Shown here: positions 3,070 to 14,573 of the stretch, piece by piece
Layout: each line of letters starts with the position of its first letter
Numbering within the stretch: position 1 is the first letter of the stretch
From: Minisyncoccota bacterium
Lineage (GTDB): Bacteria; Patescibacteriota; Minisyncoccia; Phycocordibacterales; Phycocordibacteraceae
Assembly: GCA_022842945.1 (NCBI GenBank)
Contig: JALHOO010000003.1
Location: 80,458-112,505 of the forward strand
Length of the DNA: 32,048 nucleotides
Reading direction: 5' to 3'
Translations under genes and position numbers: made by a program
The notes under the pieces: generated by a model
What the model saw: only the letters and a program-made list of their open reading frames with translations
Databases searched by the model: none
What the model was told of the DNA's origin: nothing

Positions 3070-3408
3070 CTAGGTGTTCGGCCGACAAGTGGTATTGGCC
3101 AGCTGGCCCATGTTGTAGGTCGCGATGCAGCTGTAACGGTTTCCGTTGCCGGTGTCGGCCGTCCAGGCCAGCTTCATCATCTCGGGGTTGTGGCGATTCA
3201 GAATCTGGATGCTCGCCGCCAGGATCATGGGCTGGTCGTTGTCCTGAAGCCACTGAGCCGTGACATTCTGGAGGGTGCTGTCGGGCGCCTGGCCGAGTCC
3301 GAACGGAGTCGCGTTTGCCATGGCGAGCACAGCGTTGTTCACGGTGCCACAGCCGGAGAGCGCGACGGCCGCGAGGCCGCAGAGAACGGTCATCTTGAAA
3401 GTACGCAT
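3070..3408 (-). CDS. lipoprotein (112 aa), orphan, GC-rich
   Basis: Start moved to the ATG at 3408 (MRTFKMTVLCGLAAVALSGC) with a lipobox LSGC. SD AAGGAG lies 7 nt upstream. Confidence 0.6.
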   Translation of the reverse strand: MRTFKMTVLCGLAAVALSGCGTVNNAVLAMANATPFGLGQAPDSTLQNVTAQWLQDNDQPMILAASIQILNRHNPEMMKLAWTADTGNGNRYSCIATYNMGQLANTTCRPNT

Positions 3409-3509
3409 CGTAAGGCTCCTTGATGCTGCCGCCACAGTGACGTTACGGTCTGCTAAAGAGCAGAACCACAGCTTTTCGTACGGAATCTTTTGGACCCGTA
3501 TCTGATAGG

Positions 3510-3538
3510 GTTATACGTTATTTAGATAACTCAGTCAA
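3510..3538 (-). promoter_or_regulatory. sigma70-like promoter for the lipoprotein gene
   Basis: TTGACT, 17 nt, TATAAC on the minus strand. Confidence 0.4.
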
Positions 3539-3568
3539 ATGATATTTTGATAGGTCTTGCCTTAAAAT

Positions 3569-3597
3569 GCAAAACCGTCCTTATCGGACGGTTTTGC
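3569..3597 (-). terminator. stem-loop downstream of tRNA-Glu
   Basis: gcaaaaccgtcc / ggacggttttgc 12-bp stem with a 5-nt loop, followed by ATTTTAAGG on the minus strand. Confidence 0.6.
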
Positions 3598-3602
3598 TCA
3601 TG

Positions 3603-3674
3603 TGATCCCACGGGGAATCGAACCCCGATTTCCTGCGTGAAAGGCGGGCGTCCTAACCGTTAGACGATGGGACC
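3603..3674 (-). tRNA. tRNA-Glu (anticodon TTC), no encoded CCA
   Basis: Hand fold: acceptor GGTCCCA/TGGGATC, anticodon loop CTTTCAC, T arm CGGGG-TTCGATT-CCCCG. One C-A mismatch in the anticodon stem. Confidence 0.85.
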
Positions 3675-3760
3675 TTTCCTGTAGCTTGGTGCTACGACTG
3701 GCACTGTACCACTTTTTCTACAGGCCTCAAACGTCCTCGTAGTTTATACTCGGAGGATAT

Positions 3761-4723
3761 ATGGCACTTATACTTTCGTTCGCGCTTCTTGCGGTTGGGC
3801 TCGTTATTCTCATACTCGGCGCCGAATGGCTCGTTAAGGGTGCCTCATCTATTGCACGTAAGTACGGTATTCCTCCTTTGGTTATTGGTCTCACGGTTGT
3901 GGCATTCGGTACCTCGATGCCAGAGTTGTCTGTGAACATATATGCCGCTGTCTCCGGTGCAACAGGCCTTGCTATTGGAAACGTGGTTGGCTCAAATATC
4001 GCAAACATACTCCTTGTACTCGGTGCGTCCGCTATCATCTGCAGCCTTTCCGTTAAATCAAGCACGGTACGTTGGGAGATTCCGCTCGCGCTCCTTGCGA
4101 GCGTACTCGTCCTCGTCTTTGGCAGCGATATCCTGCTTGATGGAGGGGTAACGAATGTGATAACTCGTACGGACGGTATGGCGCTTCTGGGCCTCTTTGC
4201 CATATTCATGTTCTATATCGTGGCGCTGTTCCGTTCTGACGCGAGTCCCTTAGAAGAAGAGGAGGAGAAGCCGCTGACGCCATTACGTGCATTCCTATAC
4301 ACCATCGTTGGTCTTGTCGCGCTCACTGGCGGCGGACGCCTCCTTGTAGATCAGGCAGTGTCTCTAGCAGGGGTCATAGGTCTTTCAGAAGCAGTTATCG
4401 GTCTTACGGTTGTTGCTATAGGAACGTCGCTTCCGGAACTTGCAACGTCTGTAGTTGCCGCATGGCGTAAGCAGGTAGATATTGCGGTAGGGAACGTCAT
4501 TGGTTCAAACATCTTCAACATCTTCTTGGTACTTGGCGTGAGCTCTGTTATCGCACCCTTGCCGGTGCGGGAAGGGTTCGTGGTTGATGCACTCGTTATG
4601 ATTGTGGCAACCGTCTTCCTCTTTGTTGCCCTCTTCCTTGGAAAGCGTGGACACATCGACCGATGGCAGGGCATTGTGTTCATACTCCTCTATGTTGGCT
4701 ACGTGGCGTATCTCCTCCTCTAA
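3761..4723 (+). CDS. Ca2+/Na+ antiporter (CaCA/YrbG family)
   Basis: Two alpha-repeats, GTSMPELSV..GNVVGSNIANILLVLG and GTSLPELATS..GNVIGSNIFNIFLVLG. About 10 TM segments. Confidence 0.85.
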   Translation: MALILSFALLAVGLVILILGAEWLVKGASSIARKYGIPPLVIGLTVVAFGTSMPELSVNIYAAVSGATGLAIGNVVGSNIANILLVLGASAIICSLSVKSSTVRWEIPLALLASVLVLVFGSDILLDGGVTNVITRTDGMALLGLFAIFMFYIVALFRSDASPLEEEEEKPLTPLRAFLYTIVGLVALTGGGRLLVDQAVSLAGVIGLSEAVIGLTVVAIGTSLPELATSVVAAWRKQVDIAVGNVIGSNIFNIFLVLGVSSVIAPLPVREGFVVDALVMIVATVFLFVALFLGKRGHIDRWQGIVFILLYVGYVAYLLL

Positions 4724-4777
4724 CCCCCTACTTATCATTTAGTGCGTATCTTGCTAGGATGCAGGAGTTCAACTCAA

Positions 4778-4862
4778 GGAGAGGTGCGTGAGTGGTTGAA
4801 ACGACCGGTTTCGAAAACCGGCATGCCGAAAGGTATCGGGAGTTCGAATCTCCCCCTCTCCG
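4778..4862 (+). tRNA. tRNA-Ser (anticodon CGA), long variable arm
   Basis: Acceptor GGAGAGG/CCTCTCC, anticodon stem CCGGT/ACCGG with loop TTCGAAA, T arm GGGAG-TTCGAAT-CTCCC. TGcTAGGAT extended -10 at 4752-4760. Confidence 0.9.
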
Positions 4863-4959
4863 CTAAAGAGACTCGAAGAGAGTCAGATCACCACCTTCAC
4901 AGCACAGCCAAGCTGTGCCTTGGTTTGGGTGTGTCGGCGGTGAAAGGTACAATGGCTTT

Positions 4960-6507
4960 ATGCGCGTCCAGACTCTCCGCCTGCTCGACTTCAAGCGTTT
5001 TCACGACCTCACAATCGACCTGACAACTAGGTCCACGAAAATCGTCGCCATCGTCGGGCCCAACGGCTCCGGCAAGAGCAGTGTGTTCGACGCGTTTGAA
5101 GAGATCGGAAGTTTTCAAAAAGGGCGAGGGGGCAAGTTAGAGGCTTACTACAAAAAATCTGCCCACGACCCGGCCGGTCCGGTTGTGCCAGGCTACGACG
5201 TTCATCGCTCTGTTCAGTTGGTGACCGACCCGGCCGAACTGACGCGTACGAGTATTTATATTCGAAGCGCGTACCGGTTCACGGCTCGGCTCGGTGTCGG
5301 GCAAATTCGCCAACTCCCTGACGCCGAAGCGGATGGTAACAGACCGCAGTATCTGATCGATACCGACGCGAGGCTCACCGAAAATTACGAGCGCCTAATC
5401 GGCCGCTTTTTCGGAGAGGTCTACAATAAGGACGTGAAGGGCGACGAGTGGGTCACGGCCAACATCGAAGGCATCAACGTTGTCCTGAGGGAGGTTCTGG
5501 ATATCCAAATATCCGACCTCGGTAACCCCGTCGAAGGGCAGGGGAGCCTGTACTTCGATAAGGGCACGTCGCGAAAATTTCCATACGAGAACCTTTCCGC
5601 GGGCGAGAAGGAGGTCGTCGACCTAGTGCTCGATCTCTACGTGAAGCGGACGATCTACACCGACAGCATCATTTGCATCGACGAGCCTGAGCTCCACCTC
5701 AACACGGCCATTCAGCGCCGACTTCTCATCGAACTCGAGAAGCTGGTACCCGATGGTTCTCAGCTTTGGGTGGCGACCCACAGCATCGGGTTCCTGCGCG
5801 CACTCCAAGAGGAGCTTCGAGACAATACAACGGTTCTCGATTTCAGCGATATCGATTTTGATGCGCCACATACGATCGTGCCGATCGCCGGGTCGCGTGC
5901 GGACTGGTCTCGCATATTCGCAACGGCGCTTGAGGACCTGACAGGTCTCCTTGCGCCTAGGCGGATCGTCTACTGCGAAGGACGTCCTGATCCGGGCGTG
6001 AACGGCGAAGAGCAAGGTCTCGACGCCGATGTGTACAACACGATTTTCCAGGAAGGGCACGGCGACACCCTGTTCGTGTCGAGCGGAGGTGGCGGAGAAG
6101 TCTCAAGGAATGCCCTTCTCGCGATGCGGATTCTCGGCAAGGCCCTCAGGGATGTGCGTCTCGATATTCTGAAAGACCGAGACCAACTTTCTGAAGCTGA
6201 GCGCGATGCCTTTCTTGCTGAGGACCCTTCGAAACGGATGCTGCGCCGGCATGAGCTGGAAAACTACTTGTTCGACAAAGAGGTGTTGCAAGCCTTCTGC
6301 GCCGGCAGGGGTGGAGCGCTTGATGAGGCTCGCTACGACGCAGCAGTGAATGACGTCCTTATGCAAGATCTCAAACTGGTCCAGCAGGAGATACAGGCCG
6401 CCTGCGCCTTCAGGGGAAACATGCCCGAATTTAAACGTGCCCTAGCATCCGCCTTCGACCCCGCGTTCGCGGTCTACCAGGATCTGGAAGCCTCCATCTT
6501 TCCCTAG
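4960..6507 (+). CDS. ABC-type (RecF/SMC-like) ATPase fused to a Toprim/DUF4435-like C-terminal domain; OLD-family or PARIS-like defence candidate
   Basis: Walker A GPNGSGKS, signature LSAGEKEV, Walker B IICIDEPELHL, VATHS. The C-terminus carries RIVYCEGRPD, SSGGGGEV, ILKDRDQL and HELENYLF. Start taken at the ATG at 4960 (MRVQTLRLLDFKRF). Confidence 0.65.
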   Translation: MRVQTLRLLDFKRFHDLTIDLTTRSTKIVAIVGPNGSGKSSVFDAFEEIGSFQKGRGGKLEAYYKKSAHDPAGPVVPGYDVHRSVQLVTDPAELTRTSIYIRSAYRFTARLGVGQIRQLPDAEADGNRPQYLIDTDARLTENYERLIGRFFGEVYNKDVKGDEWVTANIEGINVVLREVLDIQISDLGNPVEGQGSLYFDKGTSRKFPYENLSAGEKEVVDLVLDLYVKRTIYTDSIICIDEPELHLNTAIQRRLLIELEKLVPDGSQLWVATHSIGFLRALQEELRDNTTVLDFSDIDFDAPHTIVPIAGSRADWSRIFATALEDLTGLLAPRRIVYCEGRPDPGVNGEEQGLDADVYNTIFQEGHGDTLFVSSGGGGEVSRNALLAMRILGKALRDVRLDILKDRDQLSEAERDAFLAEDPSKRMLRRHELENYLFDKEVLQAFCAGRGGALDEARYDAAVNDVLMQDLKLVQQEIQAACAFRGNMPEFKRALASAFDPAFAVYQDLEASIFP

Positions 6508-6603
6508 TCGGTTAGCGCATGCGGGCGTCTGAAGCATTCGCGGCCTCAAACAGAGTCGTTTGACCCCCTTCTATGCACAGGCGCGCATGAGACCATTGCC
6601 TCA

Positions 6604-6765
6604 ATGGGACTTAGTCCAGAGGAACTCCAGACCTTCAAGGACGCCTACAAAAAGGCATTCCAGGAAGATCTCGACGATGCCGAAGCATCCGATCTGGCCT
6701 ACCGCCTGCAAGAACTCTATCGGCTCATACTGACGAAGCCGGATGTGTGCGCCTCAACGGATTGA
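6604..6765 (+). CDS. small helical acidic ORF (53 aa), unknown; in frame with the preceding ATPase gene
   Basis: MGLSPEELQTFKDAYKKAFQEDLDDAEASDLAYRLQELYRLILTKPD reads like real coding sequence. No SD. Same frame as 4960..6507, with no stop between the TAG at 6505 and 6763. Confidence 0.3.
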   Translation: MGLSPEELQTFKDAYKKAFQEDLDDAEASDLAYRLQELYRLILTKPDVCASTD

Positions 6766-6850
6766 TCATCAGTCACGACACCATACTTCCTAAGCAACGA
6801 AAACGCCGCCCAGGGATGCTGGGCGGCGTTGGTCAATTTCGAAGGCTTGC

Positions 6851-7024
6851 TCAGAGAGCCCTGCGGAACATGCGGATGCAGTTACGACCGTTCTCTTCTG
6901 CCACGTCTTTTGGTAACGCGGGACGGTCTTCGAGCTGTGGCTCGCGCCAAGCCAAGAACCGGTTGAGGACGGTGTCGGCCTGCATCTCTTCAGCCGTAGG
7001 TAGGTCGCGTGGACGAACTAGCAT
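6851..7024 (-). CDS. small ORF (57 aa), unknown
   Basis: SD AAGGAG lies 7 nt upstream of the ATG at 7024. The ORF-track start at 7084 lacks an RBS. Confidence 0.3.
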   Translation of the reverse strand: MLVRPRDLPTAEEMQADTVLNRFLAWREPQLEDRPALPKDVAEENGRNCIRMFRRAL

Positions 7025-7255
7025 AGCAATGCTCCTTCGCTGTCTGAAACTGTTGTCCAAATGAAGTATACCGTGTTTCAGCATACTGGGGATGTCAGGG
7101 ACTTCGGGGACGTTGATTTAGCGTTATGCGGCGTCCGTCAGCTCGTCGGATGCAATCACGTCTCGTATCTCTTCGAGTGCCTCACCCCGTTTGCTACTCT
7201 TGGTGTGTGCTAGCATTTCCTCAAGCCACACCTCGGCCTCTTCCGGAGGCTGATA

Positions 7256-7290
7256 AGTTCGAACGTCATCTACCTGCCCCCGCTAAAAGA
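7256..7290 (+). repeat. degenerate copy of the tRNA-Ser 3' end and its flank (possible distal att remnant)
   Basis: agttcgaa..catctacctgcccccgctaaaaga compared with the tRNA end agttcgaatctccccctctccgctaaagaga at 4841-4870. AGTTCG matches, then 15 of 21 positions match after a 4-nt indel. Confidence 0.3.
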
Positions 7291-7291
7291 A

Positions 7292-7321
7292 AAAGGGCGC
7301 TCGCTTTCGCGGGCGCCCTTT
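7292..7321 (-). terminator. intrinsic terminator of the HAD-family gene
   Basis: 13-bp stem aaagggcgctcgc / gcgggcgcccttt with loop tttc, followed by TTTTTCTTTT on the minus strand. Confidence 0.8.
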
Positions 7322-7326
7322 GAAGT

Positions 7327-8451
7327 CTATACGGAATAGATAGCTCCTCGAGCTTGAAGCGCCAGAAGAGAATCCACGGACTCGCGCCCTTCAACCGCTT
7401 CGTCTGCGATATAGAACGTGCGGTTCGGCTGGTCTCCGGGCATTTTGAACTCATACTTGCCAGGAGTTGCCGCAGCCGGTGTAAGGCGCTCAAGAAGCCA
7501 GCTGACATCCTCTCCGGCGAAGCTGGTGCCGTAGAGGCTGGAGCTTGCCATAAGATGACGCGCGATAGGAGCGCCCCCTGGAAGCACGAAGATCGCAGAC
7601 GCTTCAGGAAGCACGTCCCTCAGCATATACAGTCCGGTAAGCGCATCGTCAGCGATCGTAAGAGAGACGTCTTCTGGTTGAACGCGTGCTTCTGCAAGCG
7701 CCCTACGCAGAAGATGGTCAGCACTTGCTTCTTTGGTACCCAAAGAGGGCACTACATAGAAGCAGGGCTTCCCAGGCTTGCTCTCGTCTCTGAAGTCGAT
7801 GAGGGCGCGTTCTCCCATTTCAAGGAAGTGACTCGCAATCCGCAACTTCAAGTCAGTTTTGTGCTGCTCGTCTTCTGGATTGAACTGAAACCGCCAGTCG
7901 AGCGGCTGAACATCAGTTCGACCTTCATTGAAGGCGGTGTCATCTTCGAGTTTAGAAAGCGCGCCGAGAAGGTCGCCGTTGAAATCAATCTCTTCGAAGC
8001 GACGCCGGACATGCTTTCTGAAGTCCAGTCCACCAAGAAGCTCTGAGAACTCGCCGTCGTACGCATACCCTCTATCAGGTTGGCGCAGAAGAAGACTCCC
8101 TCCAAAGCCCACAATCGCAGAGGGGTCTAAATGACCCGCAAAGCGACGAACGCGTTCAGGTTTCGCATATACAAACCGGCCCGTTTCAGGATCGATTTCA
8201 AGATGCGGTGCTGCACGCGCGTAGCCATACTTGCGAGATGCTTCAAGCGCCTCGCTCGACATAACCATGCCAGTTTCGCGTGCGGTGTTATATACCACTG
8301 CACCGTTCCCGTGCGCCACTTCATGCATCTGGATCTGAGAAGTCTCAGAACCGGTGCAGGTGTTGTCGAGATCCAGAACACTTACGCGCGGATTACGACG
8401 CAGTCTCCGAACCAGCAGACTGTCCTTGTACGGATTAATCTTGGTTTCCAC
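7327..8451 (-). CDS. HAD-superfamily hydrolase (IIB-like)
   Basis: DxDxT motif VLDLDNT, NTAR, a conserved Lys in GTKEASADHL, and a distal acidic motif IADDALTG. GTG start. Confidence 0.6.
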   Translation of the reverse strand: METKINPYKDSLLVRRLRRNPRVSVLDLDNTCTGSETSQIQMHEVAHGNGAVVYNTARETGMVMSSEALEASRKYGYARAAPHLEIDPETGRFVYAKPERVRRFAGHLDPSAIVGFGGSLLLRQPDRGYAYDGEFSELLGGLDFRKHVRRRFEEIDFNGDLLGALSKLEDDTAFNEGRTDVQPLDWRFQFNPEDEQHKTDLKLRIASHFLEMGERALIDFRDESKPGKPCFYVVPSLGTKEASADHLLRRALAEARVQPEDVSLTIADDALTGLYMLRDVLPEASAIFVLPGGAPIARHLMASSSLYGTSFAGEDVSWLLERLTPAAATPGKYEFKMPGDQPNRTFYIADEAVEGRESVDSLLALQARGAIYSV

Positions 8452-8558
8452 GGTAGCCCCCAGTTGTGAATGAACAAGTCAAGCACACTCTACCTAACAT
8501 CATCTGAAGACTTCATGAACTCTCTAGGACGTCCTACATAGGCTATACTGTGCCAATC

Positions 8559-9776
8559 ATGGCGTTCACGCTCCCGAAACCCAAAGACTGTGCAGACTGC
8601 GGCAGTGGAGCTATATTCCACCGAACCACCTACATAAGCATTGTTATAGATGGCATCTTTGCACCGCTTTCAAGTCCGAACCCGTTCCTCAGAGGATTCA
8701 CGAGACTTGTGTACGGCATTGAACGCAGGGTTACGCCCTACATACTCAACACGCTCACGGACTGGGGATGGGCGAAACGTATACCCGAAGCAGATGACGA
8801 TACCCAACTCTTGGCACTTATGCTCTGGAACGAAGCTAAAGAGCGAAACATTGAGGTATCAGAGGTTCGTCTCTTCAACCTCCCACGCAACATCTTTACA
8901 GCGAAATACCCAGACGGCAGACGCATCGCATTTGAGGGCATTCCCATGCCCGCGAACGCAGACCTTGATCGCGCTCCCTGGATGGACAACAAGGACGTAC
9001 TCAAGAAGAAGTTCCGTGCGCTTGGACTTCCTGTTGCAAAGGGCGGGGCAGTTTCTACTCTTAAAGAAGCGAAGAAGCTTTTCAAGACGCTCACACCGCC
9101 TGTTATTGCAAAGCCGTTCTCCGGTTCAGCGTCGCGCCATACCGTTCTCCACATCATGAACGAAGAGGAACTCGAACATGGGTTTAACGTTGCAAAGCAA
9201 ATAGCACCTAAGGTTGTTATAGAAGAGGAGCTCGTAGGGGCGGTGTATAGAGCAACAACCGTGAATGGGGTATTTGCTGCAGCGCTTCGCAGAGACCAGC
9301 CTCACGTAACGGGAGACGGCACCCATACCATCAGAGAACTCGTAGCTATTGCAAACGAGCATCCAAGCCGACAAGGACCGTACTTCCACAGAATGCAGTT
9401 AGACGAGTACGCAGAGAAAGAACTTGAATGGCAGGGCTACACCTTCGACACCGTTCTTCCTCCGGGTATCAAAGCAACCTTGCACCAGAAGATTAATTGG
9501 AGCGTAGGAGGCACCACCTGCGACGTAACGGATGAGGTGCACCCGGACAACATAGAGCTCTTCGAAGAGGTGGCGAGAGTACTGAACGCCAAGATCGTAG
9601 GTCTCGACTTCATCATTGAAGACATGAGTCGCTCATGGAAAGAGCAGGAACGATGCGGCATCCTCGAGTGCAACAGCATGCCCTTCTTTGATAACCATCA
9701 CCTCCCGTTTGAAGGGAAGCCACGCAACGTTGCGAGCCTCATTTGGGACATGAACGAGCCTCAGAACAAAGCATAA
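8559..9776 (+). CDS. ATP-grasp domain protein (cyanophycin-synthetase N-terminal-like)
   Basis: LGLPVAKGG..PVIAKPFSGSASRHTV..VIEEELVGAVYRATTVNG..HVTGDGTHTIRELV matches the ATP-grasp pattern. Start could be the GTG at 8550 or the ATG at 8559. TATACT lies at 8544-8549. Confidence 0.55.
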   Translation: MAFTLPKPKDCADCGSGAIFHRTTYISIVIDGIFAPLSSPNPFLRGFTRLVYGIERRVTPYILNTLTDWGWAKRIPEADDDTQLLALMLWNEAKERNIEVSEVRLFNLPRNIFTAKYPDGRRIAFEGIPMPANADLDRAPWMDNKDVLKKKFRALGLPVAKGGAVSTLKEAKKLFKTLTPPVIAKPFSGSASRHTVLHIMNEEELEHGFNVAKQIAPKVVIEEELVGAVYRATTVNGVFAAALRRDQPHVTGDGTHTIRELVAIANEHPSRQGPYFHRMQLDEYAEKELEWQGYTFDTVLPPGIKATLHQKINWSVGGTTCDVTDEVHPDNIELFEEVARVLNAKIVGLDFIIEDMSRSWKEQERCGILECNSMPFFDNHHLPFEGKPRNVASLIWDMNEPQNKA

Positions 9777-9901
9777 TTCTTCATTGCCTTTTCAGTTCTG
9801 GCTGTTAGACTTAGGATATCGGTCGAATTGCCAGCCAATATATATTGGATGGCTTTGTTTCTTCCTTCAGGGAGGCGCAGAGCCATTCTCCAAAAATCAT
9901 C

Positions 9902-10021
9902 ATGGATGAGAACGAAGTTATCGCCCCAGTAGAGGGTGTTGAGGCAGAGGAAGAGGCTACCGAGGCTCCGGCTGAGGAAGCAGCTCCTGCCGTGGAGGCT
10001 GACGAGGAGGCGGCTGCATAA
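9902..10021 (+). CDS. very acidic small ORF (39 aa)
   Basis: MDENEVIAPVEGVEAEEEATEAPAEEAAPAVEADEEAAA, followed by the terminator at 10041-10067. No clear RBS. An in-frame TTG at 9845 would give 58 aa. Confidence 0.3.
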   Translation: MDENEVIAPVEGVEAEEEATEAPAEEAAPAVEADEEAAA

Positions 10022-13872: not shown

Positions 13873-14270
13873 TTAAGAAGAGCTGTTTTTAGACTGACTA
13901 GTAAGCCGCTTGAAGAGCAAGCGTTCCTTACGTTCCATTGTAGCCCCGTGTTGCTCTCCCTTCAAATGGAAACATCCGTGGATAAACAAAAACCCAACGA
14001 ACTCGGTGTACGTCATGTCGTACTCGGGTGCCTGCTTCTTCGCAACTTCAAGACAGATAACGATCTCTCCGGACTTCTCTCCGGCTTCGTACGAAAGCAC
14101 GTTCGGCACATAGTCCTTGTTACGCAGAAACATGTTCATGGCCTTCGCGCGCTTCTTCCCGGCGAACGCTAAGGACATCTCCCAGCCTGGGAGTGTAGCC
14201 TTAAGCGCCTCCTCATACGGAAAGCGGGGAATAGGAGAACGAGTGAAGTTGCGAGTGTCGAGTGAGGTCA
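13873..14270 (-). CDS. ybeY: rRNA maturation endoribonuclease YbeY
   Basis: Zn motif HGCFHLKGEQHG. Start uncertain among the TTG at 14289, the ATG at 14277 and the ATG at 14270. The stop abuts the ftsA ATG. Confidence 0.75.
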
Positions 14271-14288
14271 TACCCATAGGATATAGCA

Positions 14289-14310
14289 AAAAGCGCCCGA
14301 AGGCGCTTTT
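14289..14310 (-). terminator. intrinsic terminator after rpsU
   Basis: aaaagcgcc / ggcgctttt stem with a 4-nt loop, followed by TTTTTG on the minus strand. Confidence 0.7.
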
Positions 14311-14312
14311 AT

Positions 14313-14573
14313 CTACTTTCGTCCGCGAGTCTTGCGAGCGGCTGGATCGATCTTGCCGAGCTTCACCTGTTCGTTGTACTCAGCGATGCGCTCTCCACGG
14401 ATCATGGCGCGAGCGTGGTCTACGTTCTTGGACTTCTGGCGAACGTAGTAGCGGCGCTTACGGAGCGCGCGCACAAGACCGAGGCCCTGGCCACGGCGAG
14501 AGAAGCGGCGCAGAAGCGACGCGGAGCTCTCGTTCTTGCTACGGACTACCTCAATTCGTACGGCGTTTTGCAT
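14313..14573 (-). CDS. rpsU: 30S ribosomal protein S21
   Basis: SLLRRFSRR..RKRRYYVRQKSK pattern. Basic, 86 aa. Confidence 0.7.
   Translation of the reverse strand: MQNAVRIEVVRSKNESSASLLRRFSRRGQGLGLVRALRKRRYYVRQKSKNVDHARAMIRGERIAEYNEQVKLGKIDPAARKTRGRK

Follow-up and report, generated by a model that had tools for sequence, protein, structure and literature searches.

The window analysed here (the whole stretch of 32,048 nucleotides, nt, covering positions 80,458 to 112,505 of contig JALHOO010000003.1 from a Minisyncoccota bacterium) carries, close behind a tRNA-Ser gene, a gene for a protein of 515 amino acids (aa) in which an ABC ATPase is followed in the same chain by a predicted nuclease domain of the Toprim type. 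We consider it probable, at roughly 70%, that this gene encodes a one-polypeptide anti-phage system of the abortive-infection type, the closest known relative of which is fused PARIS (AriAB). A preliminary description of this DNA had proposed an ATPase plus Toprim protein, either of the OLD family or fused-PARIS-like, as a defence candidate, and this has been supported by Pfam for the ATPase half and by PADLOC, hhalign and Foldseek for the C-terminal half. Regarding the host, the window encodes an FtsZ with 97% identity to the protein of a 'Patescibacteria group bacterium' and about 83% to Parcubacteria FtsZ, in agreement with the earlier guess of a Patescibacteria (Candidate Phyla Radiation) organism. 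The gene and its parts are the following:

4960 to 6507, plus strand: ATPase-Toprim gene, 515 aa, single-chain PARIS-like (AriAB-like) defence candidate
4960 to 5889, plus strand: ABC ATPase domain (SMC/RecF-type, AAA_21/AAA_15), residues 1 to about 310
5056 to 5079, plus strand: Walker A, with K39
5593 to 5616, plus strand: signature LSAGEKEV of the ATPase domain
5668 to 5700, plus strand: Walker B/D-loop IICIDEPELHL, with D241 and E242
5770 to 5784, plus strand: H-loop VATHS, with H274
5956 to 6279, plus strand: predicted Toprim (DUF4435-like) nuclease core, residues 333-440
5971 to 5982, plus strand: YCEG, with E340
6079 to 6096, plus strand: SSGGGG of the Toprim core
6175 to 6183, plus strand: DRD, with D406 and D408
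6253 to 6267, plus strand: ELENY, with E432 and E434
6280 to 6504, plus strand: C-terminal helical bundle, residues 441-515, short when compared to AriB, with AlphaFold2 helices at a pLDDT (predicted local distance difference test) above 90

The open reading frame (ORF) runs from 4915 to 6507 on the plus strand and opens with GTG, while an internal ATG at 4960 gives the 515-aa protein; the methionine at this position is the start in all members of alignment A1, which contains 36 full-length homologs with 49-90% identity to it. All eight motifs quoted in the preliminary description are at the places it gave, four of them in the ATPase half (GPNGSGKS 33-40, LSAGEKEV 212-219, IICIDEPELHL 237-247 and VATHS 271-275) and four in the C-terminal half (RIVYCEGRPD 335-344, SSGGGGEV 374-381, ILKDRDQL 403-410 and HELENYLF 431-438). 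The residues that are invariant in the 36 homologs comprise G33, P34, N35, G36, G38, K39 and S40 in Walker A, S213, G215, E216, K217 and E218 in the ABC signature, C239, I240, D241, E242, P243, E244, L245 and H246 in Walker B and the D-loop, A272, T273, H274 and S275 in the H-loop, and Y338, C339, E340, G341, S374, G376, G377, L404, D406, E434 and N435 in the Toprim part; in addition, D408 and E432 are conserved in at least 90% and most members have D or E at position 344. Because these residues are invariant among homologs down to 49% identity, the motifs are the product of selection and not of chance. Comparison of the gene with a 90%-identical copy (locus L081) gave a ratio of non-synonymous to synonymous changes (omega) of 0.057 at a synonymous divergence (dS) of 1.0, which indicates purifying selection. 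Identity along the protein is lowest at residues 61-100 (28%) and reaches 82-84% at 201-220 and 241-280, where the signature and Walker B lie. The gene had also been described as richer in GC than the backbone, which is true but only mildly so (0.571 against a window mean of 0.538 +/- 0.019, a value reached by 2% of equal-sized windows).

The N-terminal 310 residues or so are an intact ABC ATPase. Pfam recognized AAA_21 (E 7.1e-20, 72.7 bits, cut-off 27) and AAA_15 (E 3.5e-12, 47.1 bits, cut-off 32.1), and these matches, together with that of SMC_N, are all confined to the first 290 residues approximately. In the AlphaFold2 model of the full-length protein (mean pLDDT 82.9) this half forms a standard ABC/SMC-type head from which a two-helix arm projects at 138-180, and in a Foldseek search with this model the ATPase head accounted for matches to PtuA, the retron Eco8 effector and GajA (E 1e-10 to 8e-8). 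The NCBIfam scan of the 515-aa protein found nothing near a cut-off, and the repair models were all far below theirs.

Standard domain libraries were much less informative on the C-terminal half, which by itself gave no Pfam match at E<=1 and none in NCBIfam. Defence-specific models did recognize it. With the whole protein the best PADLOC model was AriAB (PDLC02981; E 3.7e-29, 99.9 bits), aligned to residues 202-444, and AriAB was the top defence model not only for the query but also for each of the 36 homologs in the alignment and for 10 distant family members (32-50% identity, from plasmid, viral and genomic copies), which scored 80-138 bits. When the last 200 residues or so of 27 family members were scanned against 5,027 PADLOC defence models, AriAB was matched by 25 of the 27 (best E 1.7e-8) and AriB by five (best E 1.4e-6); besides these PARIS models there was a single stray MTase_II match in one member, and the OLD and GajA models of PADLOC were matched by none of the C-termini. 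Pfam DUF4435 appeared in 3 of the same 27 (best E 3.8e-4) and in one more representative of the family outside these 27, P0249 (E 2.6e-4, 21.3 bits), always below its cut-off of 27 bits, and TOPRIM_OLD was not among the 13 Pfam families that the 27 C-termini matched. A Pfam check of the two halves had been suggested earlier, and its outcome was divided, as the N-terminal half gave AAA_21 and AAA_15, whereas for the C-terminal half DUF4435 came up only in relatives and below threshold, and TOPRIM_OLD did not come up.

Comparison of profiles and of structures agreed with the defence models. Aligned by hhalign, the C-terminal profile of the family (A2) matched that of a DUF4435 family with PF14491-annotated members (A4) with a probability of 88.8% and an E of 2.5e-6 over 84 columns, which span the SGG-DRD-E-ENY core. 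In the AlphaFold2 model strands and helices alternate along the Toprim core, and the C-terminal domain was also modelled by itself (pLDDT 82.4, pTM 0.78) and searched with Foldseek against 350,542 PDB chains. First in rank came 6nk8_A, the C-terminal Toprim region of a Burkholderia OLD protein of class 2 (E 8.7e-4, prob 1.0, TMq 0.42), and second AriB, 8ux9_A (E 2.8e-3, prob 0.77, TMq 0.27, the model being weak in the Toprim loops); the hits beyond rank 2 were unrelated hydrolases with E >0.018. A search of BFVD with the same model returned nothing significant. The preliminary description had asked for this structural comparison, and had made its proposal depend on a Toprim or DUF4435 signal in this half, a signal that was found by PADLOC (AriAB/AriB), by hhalign and by Foldseek. 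We conclude that the C-terminal half is a predicted, divergent Toprim domain of the DUF4435 type with a short helical bundle behind it; this bundle (residues 441-515) is among the more variable parts of the family (38-51% conservation).

The link to PARIS is also suggested by a naturally split relative. Locus L005 (7827-9757; Actinomycetota metagenome-assembled genome, SYMT01000004.1), which came out of a hidden Markov model (HMM) search of the loci collected, contains a compact ATPase gene and a separate gene of 279 aa that overlap by 4 nt. The ATPase, of at most 364 aa, is 26% identical to the N-terminal half of the query and colinear with it (E 2e-12), and the 279-aa protein displays the same series of motifs (WVED, SGG, DRD and HEVENYLLD) and carries, like several of its homologs, a precomputed PF14491 (DUF4435) annotation; about 20 homologs of around 279 aa were found for this partner, most of them without Pfam annotation. 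We take this pair to be the split counterpart of the fused protein, smaller than AriA/AriB of Escherichia coli. In AriB the metal-binding residues are E26, D30, D88, E90 and E122 (PMC11464382). Going by motif order and spacing (E340 and D344 are 4 residues apart, as in AriB, and E340 and D406 are 66 apart against 62), E340, D344, D406, D408 and E434 would map onto them in that order.

As in the 515-aa protein, in fused PARIS (merged ariAB, the 'PARIS merge' of DefenseFinder) the same AAA_15/21 ATPase precedes a DUF4435-type Toprim in one polypeptide, and a single gene likewise makes up the system, which occurs in defence islands, in prophages and on mobile elements. However, our protein is about 180 positions shorter, around 100 of these being missing from the helical insert of the ATPase and around 95 from the C-terminal bundle, and Pfam DUF4435 stays below threshold in its family. 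The two-gene PARIS of E. coli B185 (8ux9) has the same ATPase family, with the Walker A lysine at K39 in both proteins, and its AriB has the same set of Toprim acidic residues and the same layout of Toprim plus helical bundle; the compact split pair of L005 bridges this two-gene form and the fused protein. AriA, by contrast, has 464 aa, with 354 residues from K39 to E393 (PMC11464382), where the 515-aa protein has 203 from K39 to E242. The long coiled-coil insert of AriA (IS1/IS2, which provides the hexamer and the trigger pores) is therefore mostly absent here, where the model has only the two-helix arm at 138-180. Other differences are the metal-binding motif, which is DxD in our protein and DxE in AriB (D88/E90), and the fact that AriB is freed from AriA and then dimerises, something impossible for a fused chain.

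The protein had been called unusually compact, and this holds against PARIS (about 180 positions under the 694 of the PADLOC AriAB model, and below AriA plus AriB, 464+306 aa in 8ux9) but not against the class 1 OLD protein of Thermus scotoductus (528 aa, 6p74), which is of the same size. As the HMMs built to find fused PARIS in the original study were applied with cut-offs of 80 or 20 bits (PMC9122126), current tools may well label the gene as PARIS. On the other hand, the published PARIS phylogeny kept only matches of >75% coverage (PMC11464382), a filter that this family would probably fail. Judged from its sequence, the gene would be a compact, fused, PARIS-like (OLD class-4-like) variant that partly qualifies for the curated families in formal terms.

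The family is widespread. A word-indexed search gave >2,000 matches, the best 120 of which are full-length (approximately 510-560 aa), and an exhaustive search with a profile of the C-terminal domain gave 704 clusters at 50% identity, 412 of them at E<=1e-10. All complete proteins in the best 150 clusters have the same architecture, with the domain beginning at about residue 315, and the shorter entries among these 150 are probably fragments. A scan of genome contigs with generic peptide patterns recovered full-length relatives at 4 of 80 loci. The sources include Patescibacteria/Parcubacteria, Rhizorhapis (a sphingomonad alphaproteobacterium, 77% identical), Ignavibacteriaceae, Treponemataceae, Hyphomicrobiaceae, Phascolarctobacterium and Poribacteria, as well as one copy on a Zymomonas plasmid and nine on IMG/VR viral contigs, with neighbours such as an integrase or a CI-type repressor. 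The GenBank phage collection gave no protein-level match to the 515-aa protein, and no DUF4435 gene was seen in any of 60 listed P4 satellites, the one locus inspected carrying other cargo.

We examined 14 gene neighbourhoods, including the window. In ten of them there are defence or mobile-element genes (restriction, Dnd, CBASS-like, SIR2-HerA, toxin-antitoxin, recombinase, integrase or prophage genes), so the homologs lie outside any consistent housekeeping context, a point that the preliminary description had set as a test of its proposal. These ten are:

L081 (90% identical): Dnd genes, SMODS+SLATT, serine recombinase
L087: serine recombinase, TrwB, ArdC, HicB
L001: HNH, Mrr-type endonuclease, transposase
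L002: serine recombinase, helix-turn-helix gene
L004 (Phascolarctobacterium): guaA upstream, a 1,355-aa Eco57I/ResIII enzyme downstream
pZMOB01 (plasmid): between RelE/ParE and YafQ/DinJ pairs
L100: between a McrB-like/LlaJI pair and a SIR2-HerA pair
L094: Schlafen/AlbA_2, trypsin-like peptidase, T5orf172 protein
L099: phage integrase
L098: CI-type repressor

As no partner gene recurs in these neighbourhoods, we regard this as a single-gene system. A GajB-type UvrD/PcrA-like helicase does not adjoin the gene in the window or at any homolog locus examined, there is no reverse transcriptase among the neighbours, and an Rfam scan of 3400-8600 found tRNAs only and no msr/msd non-coding RNA. The gene was said to stand alone, and with no helicase, reverse transcriptase or separate nuclease nearby it does, with the addition that an ORF of 53 aa travels along with it in its closest relative. 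Two loci deserve a separate mention. On L100 (3898-12993; IMG/VR contig 3300045988_172546) a tight same-strand run of AAA_5 (McrB-like), LlaJI-type endonuclease, ATPase-Toprim, SIR2_2 and HerA genes sets three candidate defence systems back to back on a viral contig, and on L004 (7980-9610) the homolog appears as two ORFs of 220 and 300 aa, which may reflect a pseudogene or an assembly error.

How the gene reached its present position can be read from two relatives, L091 and L093 (contigs of 675 and 405 kb), whose FtsZ is 96% identical to that of the window and in which the ATPase-Toprim gene is absent at the syntenic site. The elements of the insertion are these:

4778 to 4863, plus strand: tRNA-Ser, anticodon CGA (ARAGORN; Rfam tRNA, 55.6 bits), whose 3' end is the left junction of the cassette
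4864 to 7283, plus strand: inserted cassette of 2,420 nt, with the ATPase-Toprim gene and the 53-aa ORF and then a terminal repeat
4870 to 4959, plus strand: upstream non-coding region, with a 7-bp hairpin at 4902-4918 and a -10-like TACAAT at 4947-4952
6604 to 6765, plus strand: ORF of 53 aa, acidic and probably helical, 96 nt after the stop of the gene in both the window and L081
6802 to 6830, plus strand: perfect 12-bp GC-rich hairpin (inverted repeat I13), fold of -33.3 kcal/mol, z = -2.56
7086 to 7283, plus strand: terminal repeat element of 198 nt, whose right end ...ATCTACCTGCCCCCGC is the recombination junction

In L091 and L093 the gene order is FtsZ, TrxB, a 401-aa gene, a gene of 360/390 aa, tRNA-Ser and tRNA-Glu, and the empty site reads ...CTCTCCGC|CAAAGAAAAGGGCG, followed by a terminator hairpin, directly after tRNA-Ser. 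The window junctions read ...CTCTCCGC|TAAAGAGACTC on the left and CTGCCCCCGC|TAAAAGAAAAAGGGCG on the right, and the downstream host sequence of the empty site resumes after 7283. Because empty-site sequence flanks both ends, the insertion is exactly 4864-7283 (2,420 nt). This comparison proves that the gene was acquired horizontally and is accessory in the host lineage. Homology between the window and its relatives in blastn ends at 4869 and restarts at about 8411, and positions 4834-7190 recur unchanged in L089, an independent contig from short reads. When the 3' end of tRNA-Ser was aligned locally to 7256-7287, the match did not reach significance (59 of 500 shuffles were as good); the junction at 7283 is set by the empty site and the repeat element, independently of these shuffle statistics. 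The gene had been placed 98 nt after the 3' end of tRNA-Ser; it does lie close behind it, but the spacing to the ATG is 96 nt. The cassette has no recombinase of its own.

Some further observations concern the surroundings of the insertion. To its right, a 374-aa gene (7327-8451, minus strand) shares no more than 26-31% identity with the gene at the same position in L091/L093 and has no Pfam domain, while the next gene (8550-9776) is 81% identical to its counterpart in the relatives; the 374-aa gene is either very fast-evolving or replaced, at the edge of a variable hotspot. To its left, about 75 nt separate tRNA-Glu from tRNA-Ser in the relatives, and in the window a Na+/Ca2+ exchanger gene (Na_Ca_ex, 3761-4723, within an insert at 3683-4751) lies between the two. 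From the 374-aa gene to Sua5 the cargo also varies from genome to genome (CSD, AHSA1, MFS). Because of this insert and of the differing cargo, the tRNA cluster is a general hotspot where genes turn over in the lineage. In Rhizorhapis (L082) the 77%-identical homolog is located 197 nt downstream of a tRNA-Arg(ccg) (7728-7804), and the gene may have landed repeatedly at tRNA 3' ends.

Inside the cassette, DNA homology to L081 extends from about 4870, at the left junction, through the gene, the 96-nt spacer and the 53-aa ORF to about 6745. The upstream region 4870-4959, which also has a GACTC...GAGTC inverted repeat, aligns with L081 9915-10000 despite saturated synonymous sites (dS ~1.0). Its TACAAT ends 7 nt before the ATG with no visible Shine-Dalgarno sequence; read by eye as a promoter, it may give rise to a leaderless mRNA. 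A consensus sigma-70 scan, which is not designed for this phylum, found no promoter sites. The 53-aa ORF is under strong purifying selection between the window and L081 (omega 0.069 at dS 0.92), has no Pfam match and has been annotated as a protein on 4 contigs. It is a genuine gene and not a conserved partner of the family: the idea that it is an obligatory partner was rejected, as it accompanies the 90% relative only and tblastn found it absent beside the 61-78% homologs. The hairpin at 6802-6830, which lacks a T-run and was not called by the consensus terminator scan, probably terminates the two-gene unit.

The terminal repeat points to the carrier. Its minus strand (7282-7127) carries, as an orphan copy, the final 52 codons of a gene for a large serine recombinase, and three GGGAC direct repeats (about 7086-7115) follow the stop of this fragment. 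Four copies with an average identity of 76% were compared, that of the window and those of L081 at 7926-8122, 9706-9902 and 14234-14430 (nhmmer E 3.7e-59), the last of which is the true 3' end of the intact recombinase gene of L081. The tail encoded in each copy is ...RTFQPP-E-E-WLEEMLAHAKS-KR-ETL...LAA, followed by TAA, TAG or TGA depending on the copy, and ...ATCT-CCCCCGC is the common breakpoint of all orphan copies. L081 shows the order SMODS+SLATT and repeat 1, three small genes and repeat 2, ATPase-Toprim plus four genes and repeat 3, while the window has one unit of cargo plus repeat with no recombinase nearby, and the last bases of its tRNA end resemble the junction sequence. Further copies occur on metagenome contigs (L157, L166, L135, L142, L145), several of them as arrays with intervals of 0.6-0.8 kb, and a 58-kb marine contig has an 81%-identical full-length recombinase gene ending in the repeat plus one orphan copy. 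Most simply, these data can be read as a site-specific accretion of cassettes, each newcomer supplying the recombinase gene with a new 3' end in place of the old one; the dN/dS values between the fragment copies (0.17-0.85) are too ambiguous to tell whether they are kept as functional spare C-termini.

With regard to the carrier only, these cassettes are similar to those of the SCCmec type, which likewise stack in tandem at a site whose gene 3' end is restored; PMC11470126 describes tandem SCC elements at rlmH in which recombinase-less cargo cassettes, some with defence genes, are bounded by direct repeats and can be moved in trans. In contrast to SCCmec, the repeated 3' end here is that of the recombinase gene itself (52 codons plus GGGAC) and not of rlmH, and the copy in the window is placed at the 3' end of tRNA-Ser, where no recombinase gene lies close by. 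It is conceivable, and we propose it only tentatively, that the carrier is an integron-like serine-recombinase cassette system and that its cargo is a minimal PARIS without effector release and with a different trigger-sensing surface. Stacked cassettes would then keep the adjoining recombinase gene intact, as in the L081 array and on the 58-kb marine contig, and sites of similar sequence, such as the tRNA-Ser 3' end, would be additional targets for insertion. If this were true, such a system would shuttle defence genes across phyla, this gene being found at 90% identity in a Dnd/CBASS-like island and at 77% in a sphingomonad.

Several data weigh against the identification of the gene as a fused, PARIS-like defence system. 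The AriAB profile is matched only at about 216-556 of its 694 positions, leaving unmatched the part of the C-terminal bundle (about 556-694), and the query has no match to Pfam DUF4435 (PF14491) or TOPRIM_OLD (PF20469) at E<=1. Searches of the PDB with phmmer and the whole-protein profile returned ATPase matches only, with no AriB or OLD Toprim, and neither of these was reached with the C-terminal profile or the Toprim core of P0249. The C-terminal model had low TM-scores in Foldseek (0.42 and 0.27), and AlphaFold2 is uncertain in the Toprim loops (pLDDT <50 at 343-351 and 376-384). In 4 of the 14 contexts (the window, L082, L085 and L088) the flanking genes are housekeeping or uninformative. 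Moreover, architecture by itself is no proof of defence, because Cran1, an archaeal OLD-family ATPase, has a cell-cycle role and not one in defence (PMC12796447), and for our protein the substrate (tRNA or DNA) and the trigger are purely inferred.

An alternative that has to be weighed is a class 1 OLD-type DNA exo/endonuclease, like P2 Old or the T. scotoductus OLD (TsOLD), attacking phage or host DNA and not RNA or tRNA. Class 1 OLD systems are defined as a single gene in which an ABC ATPase is fused to a Toprim (PMC10568477), and by this operational definition the gene belongs there, with its ATPase-Toprim order and no conserved partner in 14 neighbourhoods; their proteins are also of similar size (about 520-590 aa, with TsOLD at 528), their ATPase regulates a two-metal Toprim nuclease and phage-borne examples exist. 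An OLD Toprim (6nk8_A) is, in addition, the best structural match of the C-terminal half, and the full-length model matches the OLD-type effector of retron Eco8 and GajA. Nevertheless, the Toprim subtype differs: TOPRIM_OLD is matched neither by the protein, nor by its C-terminal half (E<=1), nor by the 27 C-termini, which match PADLOC AriAB/AriB and no OLD or GajA model, and it is the DUF4435 family to which profile-profile homology was found. The split ATPase plus DUF4435 relative at L005 also speaks against this alternative, as does the similarity to TsOLD (6p74), limited to the P-loop. The fold combination of ATPase and Toprim is common to all these systems, including Gabija GajA (class 2 OLD) and the retron Eco8 effector (class 3 OLD), although the PADLOC models of these last two are not matched from the C-terminus. 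Between the two labels offered by the preliminary description, the sequence evidence favours PARIS-like (AriAB/AriB, DUF4435) over OLD proper, and we consider a class 1 OLD nuclease unlikely.

The gene could also be a selfish addiction module of the cassette, with a toxin checked by its own ATPase or by the 53-aa protein and with defence being incidental at most. The behaviour of PARIS does resemble that of a type II toxin-antitoxin pair (PMC10802264), purifying selection acts on the 53-aa ORF that is inherited together with the gene (omega 0.069), the plasmid copy is placed between toxin-antitoxin modules and the gene rides on recombinase cassettes. This explanation is quite improbable in our opinion, given that the 53-aa ORF is absent next to all other homologs examined and is not, therefore, a general antitoxin, and that many copies are found in chromosomal defence islands and in prophage immunity regions. 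Even harder to sustain is a housekeeping role in DNA repair or chromosome maintenance, as an ATPase-nuclease similar to RecF/SbcC or to Cran1. It would account for the SMC_N/RecF-type similarity of the N-terminus and for the housekeeping genes that flank the gene in the window and some homologs, and Cran1 offers a precedent (PMC12796447). But such a gene would not be expected to be missing at the syntenic site of two relatives with 96% identical FtsZ, nor to have a 77% identical copy in an alphaproteobacterium and others in a spirochaete, a Firmicute, a plasmid and prophages, with no conserved synteny and with the NCBIfam repair models all far below their cut-offs.

Returning to a PARIS-like defence system, both the defence function and the substrate of the 515-aa protein are inferred by analogy, and the mechanism that we propose is drawn from PARIS (PMC11464382, PMC10802264) and OLD proteins (PMC10568477). 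The ATPase head would dimerise on ATP and would act both as infection sensor and as safety catch. The state of the ATPase would be altered by a phage cue, for which the hypervariable residues 61-100 and the short helical arm 138-180 may be the reading surface, and this change would unmask or pair the tethered Toprim nuclease, which could then cleave nucleic acid by a two-metal reaction and arrest the growth of the infected cell. As there is one chain and most of the pore-forming insert of AriA is missing, activation should not take place by release of an effector and would have to be a conformational change in an oligomer. The substrate is most likely tRNA or other RNA, because AriB, which cuts tRNA, is the closer relative; DNA, which OLD proteins cut, is the alternative. 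The gene itself arrived on the 2,420-nt cassette, which has no recombinase and integrated at the tRNA-Ser 3' end.

These data have several implications. They uncover a gap in annotation, since the nuclease half is left unannotated by Pfam and public records say 'AAA family ATPase' for a family that is nevertheless widespread, with 412 clusters. The protein, about 250 residues smaller than AriA plus AriB, could be a minimal model of how an ABC ATPase gates a Toprim nuclease that is inseparable from it, and a small single gene is easy to clone, mutate and solve. If it proved to be non-defensive, the ATPase-DUF4435 architecture would be an unreliable marker of immunity. Finally, a candidate for innate immunity is documented here in a reduced Patescibacteria genome, and the cassette that carries it suggests a serine-recombinase route for the movement of defence genes between distant phyla.

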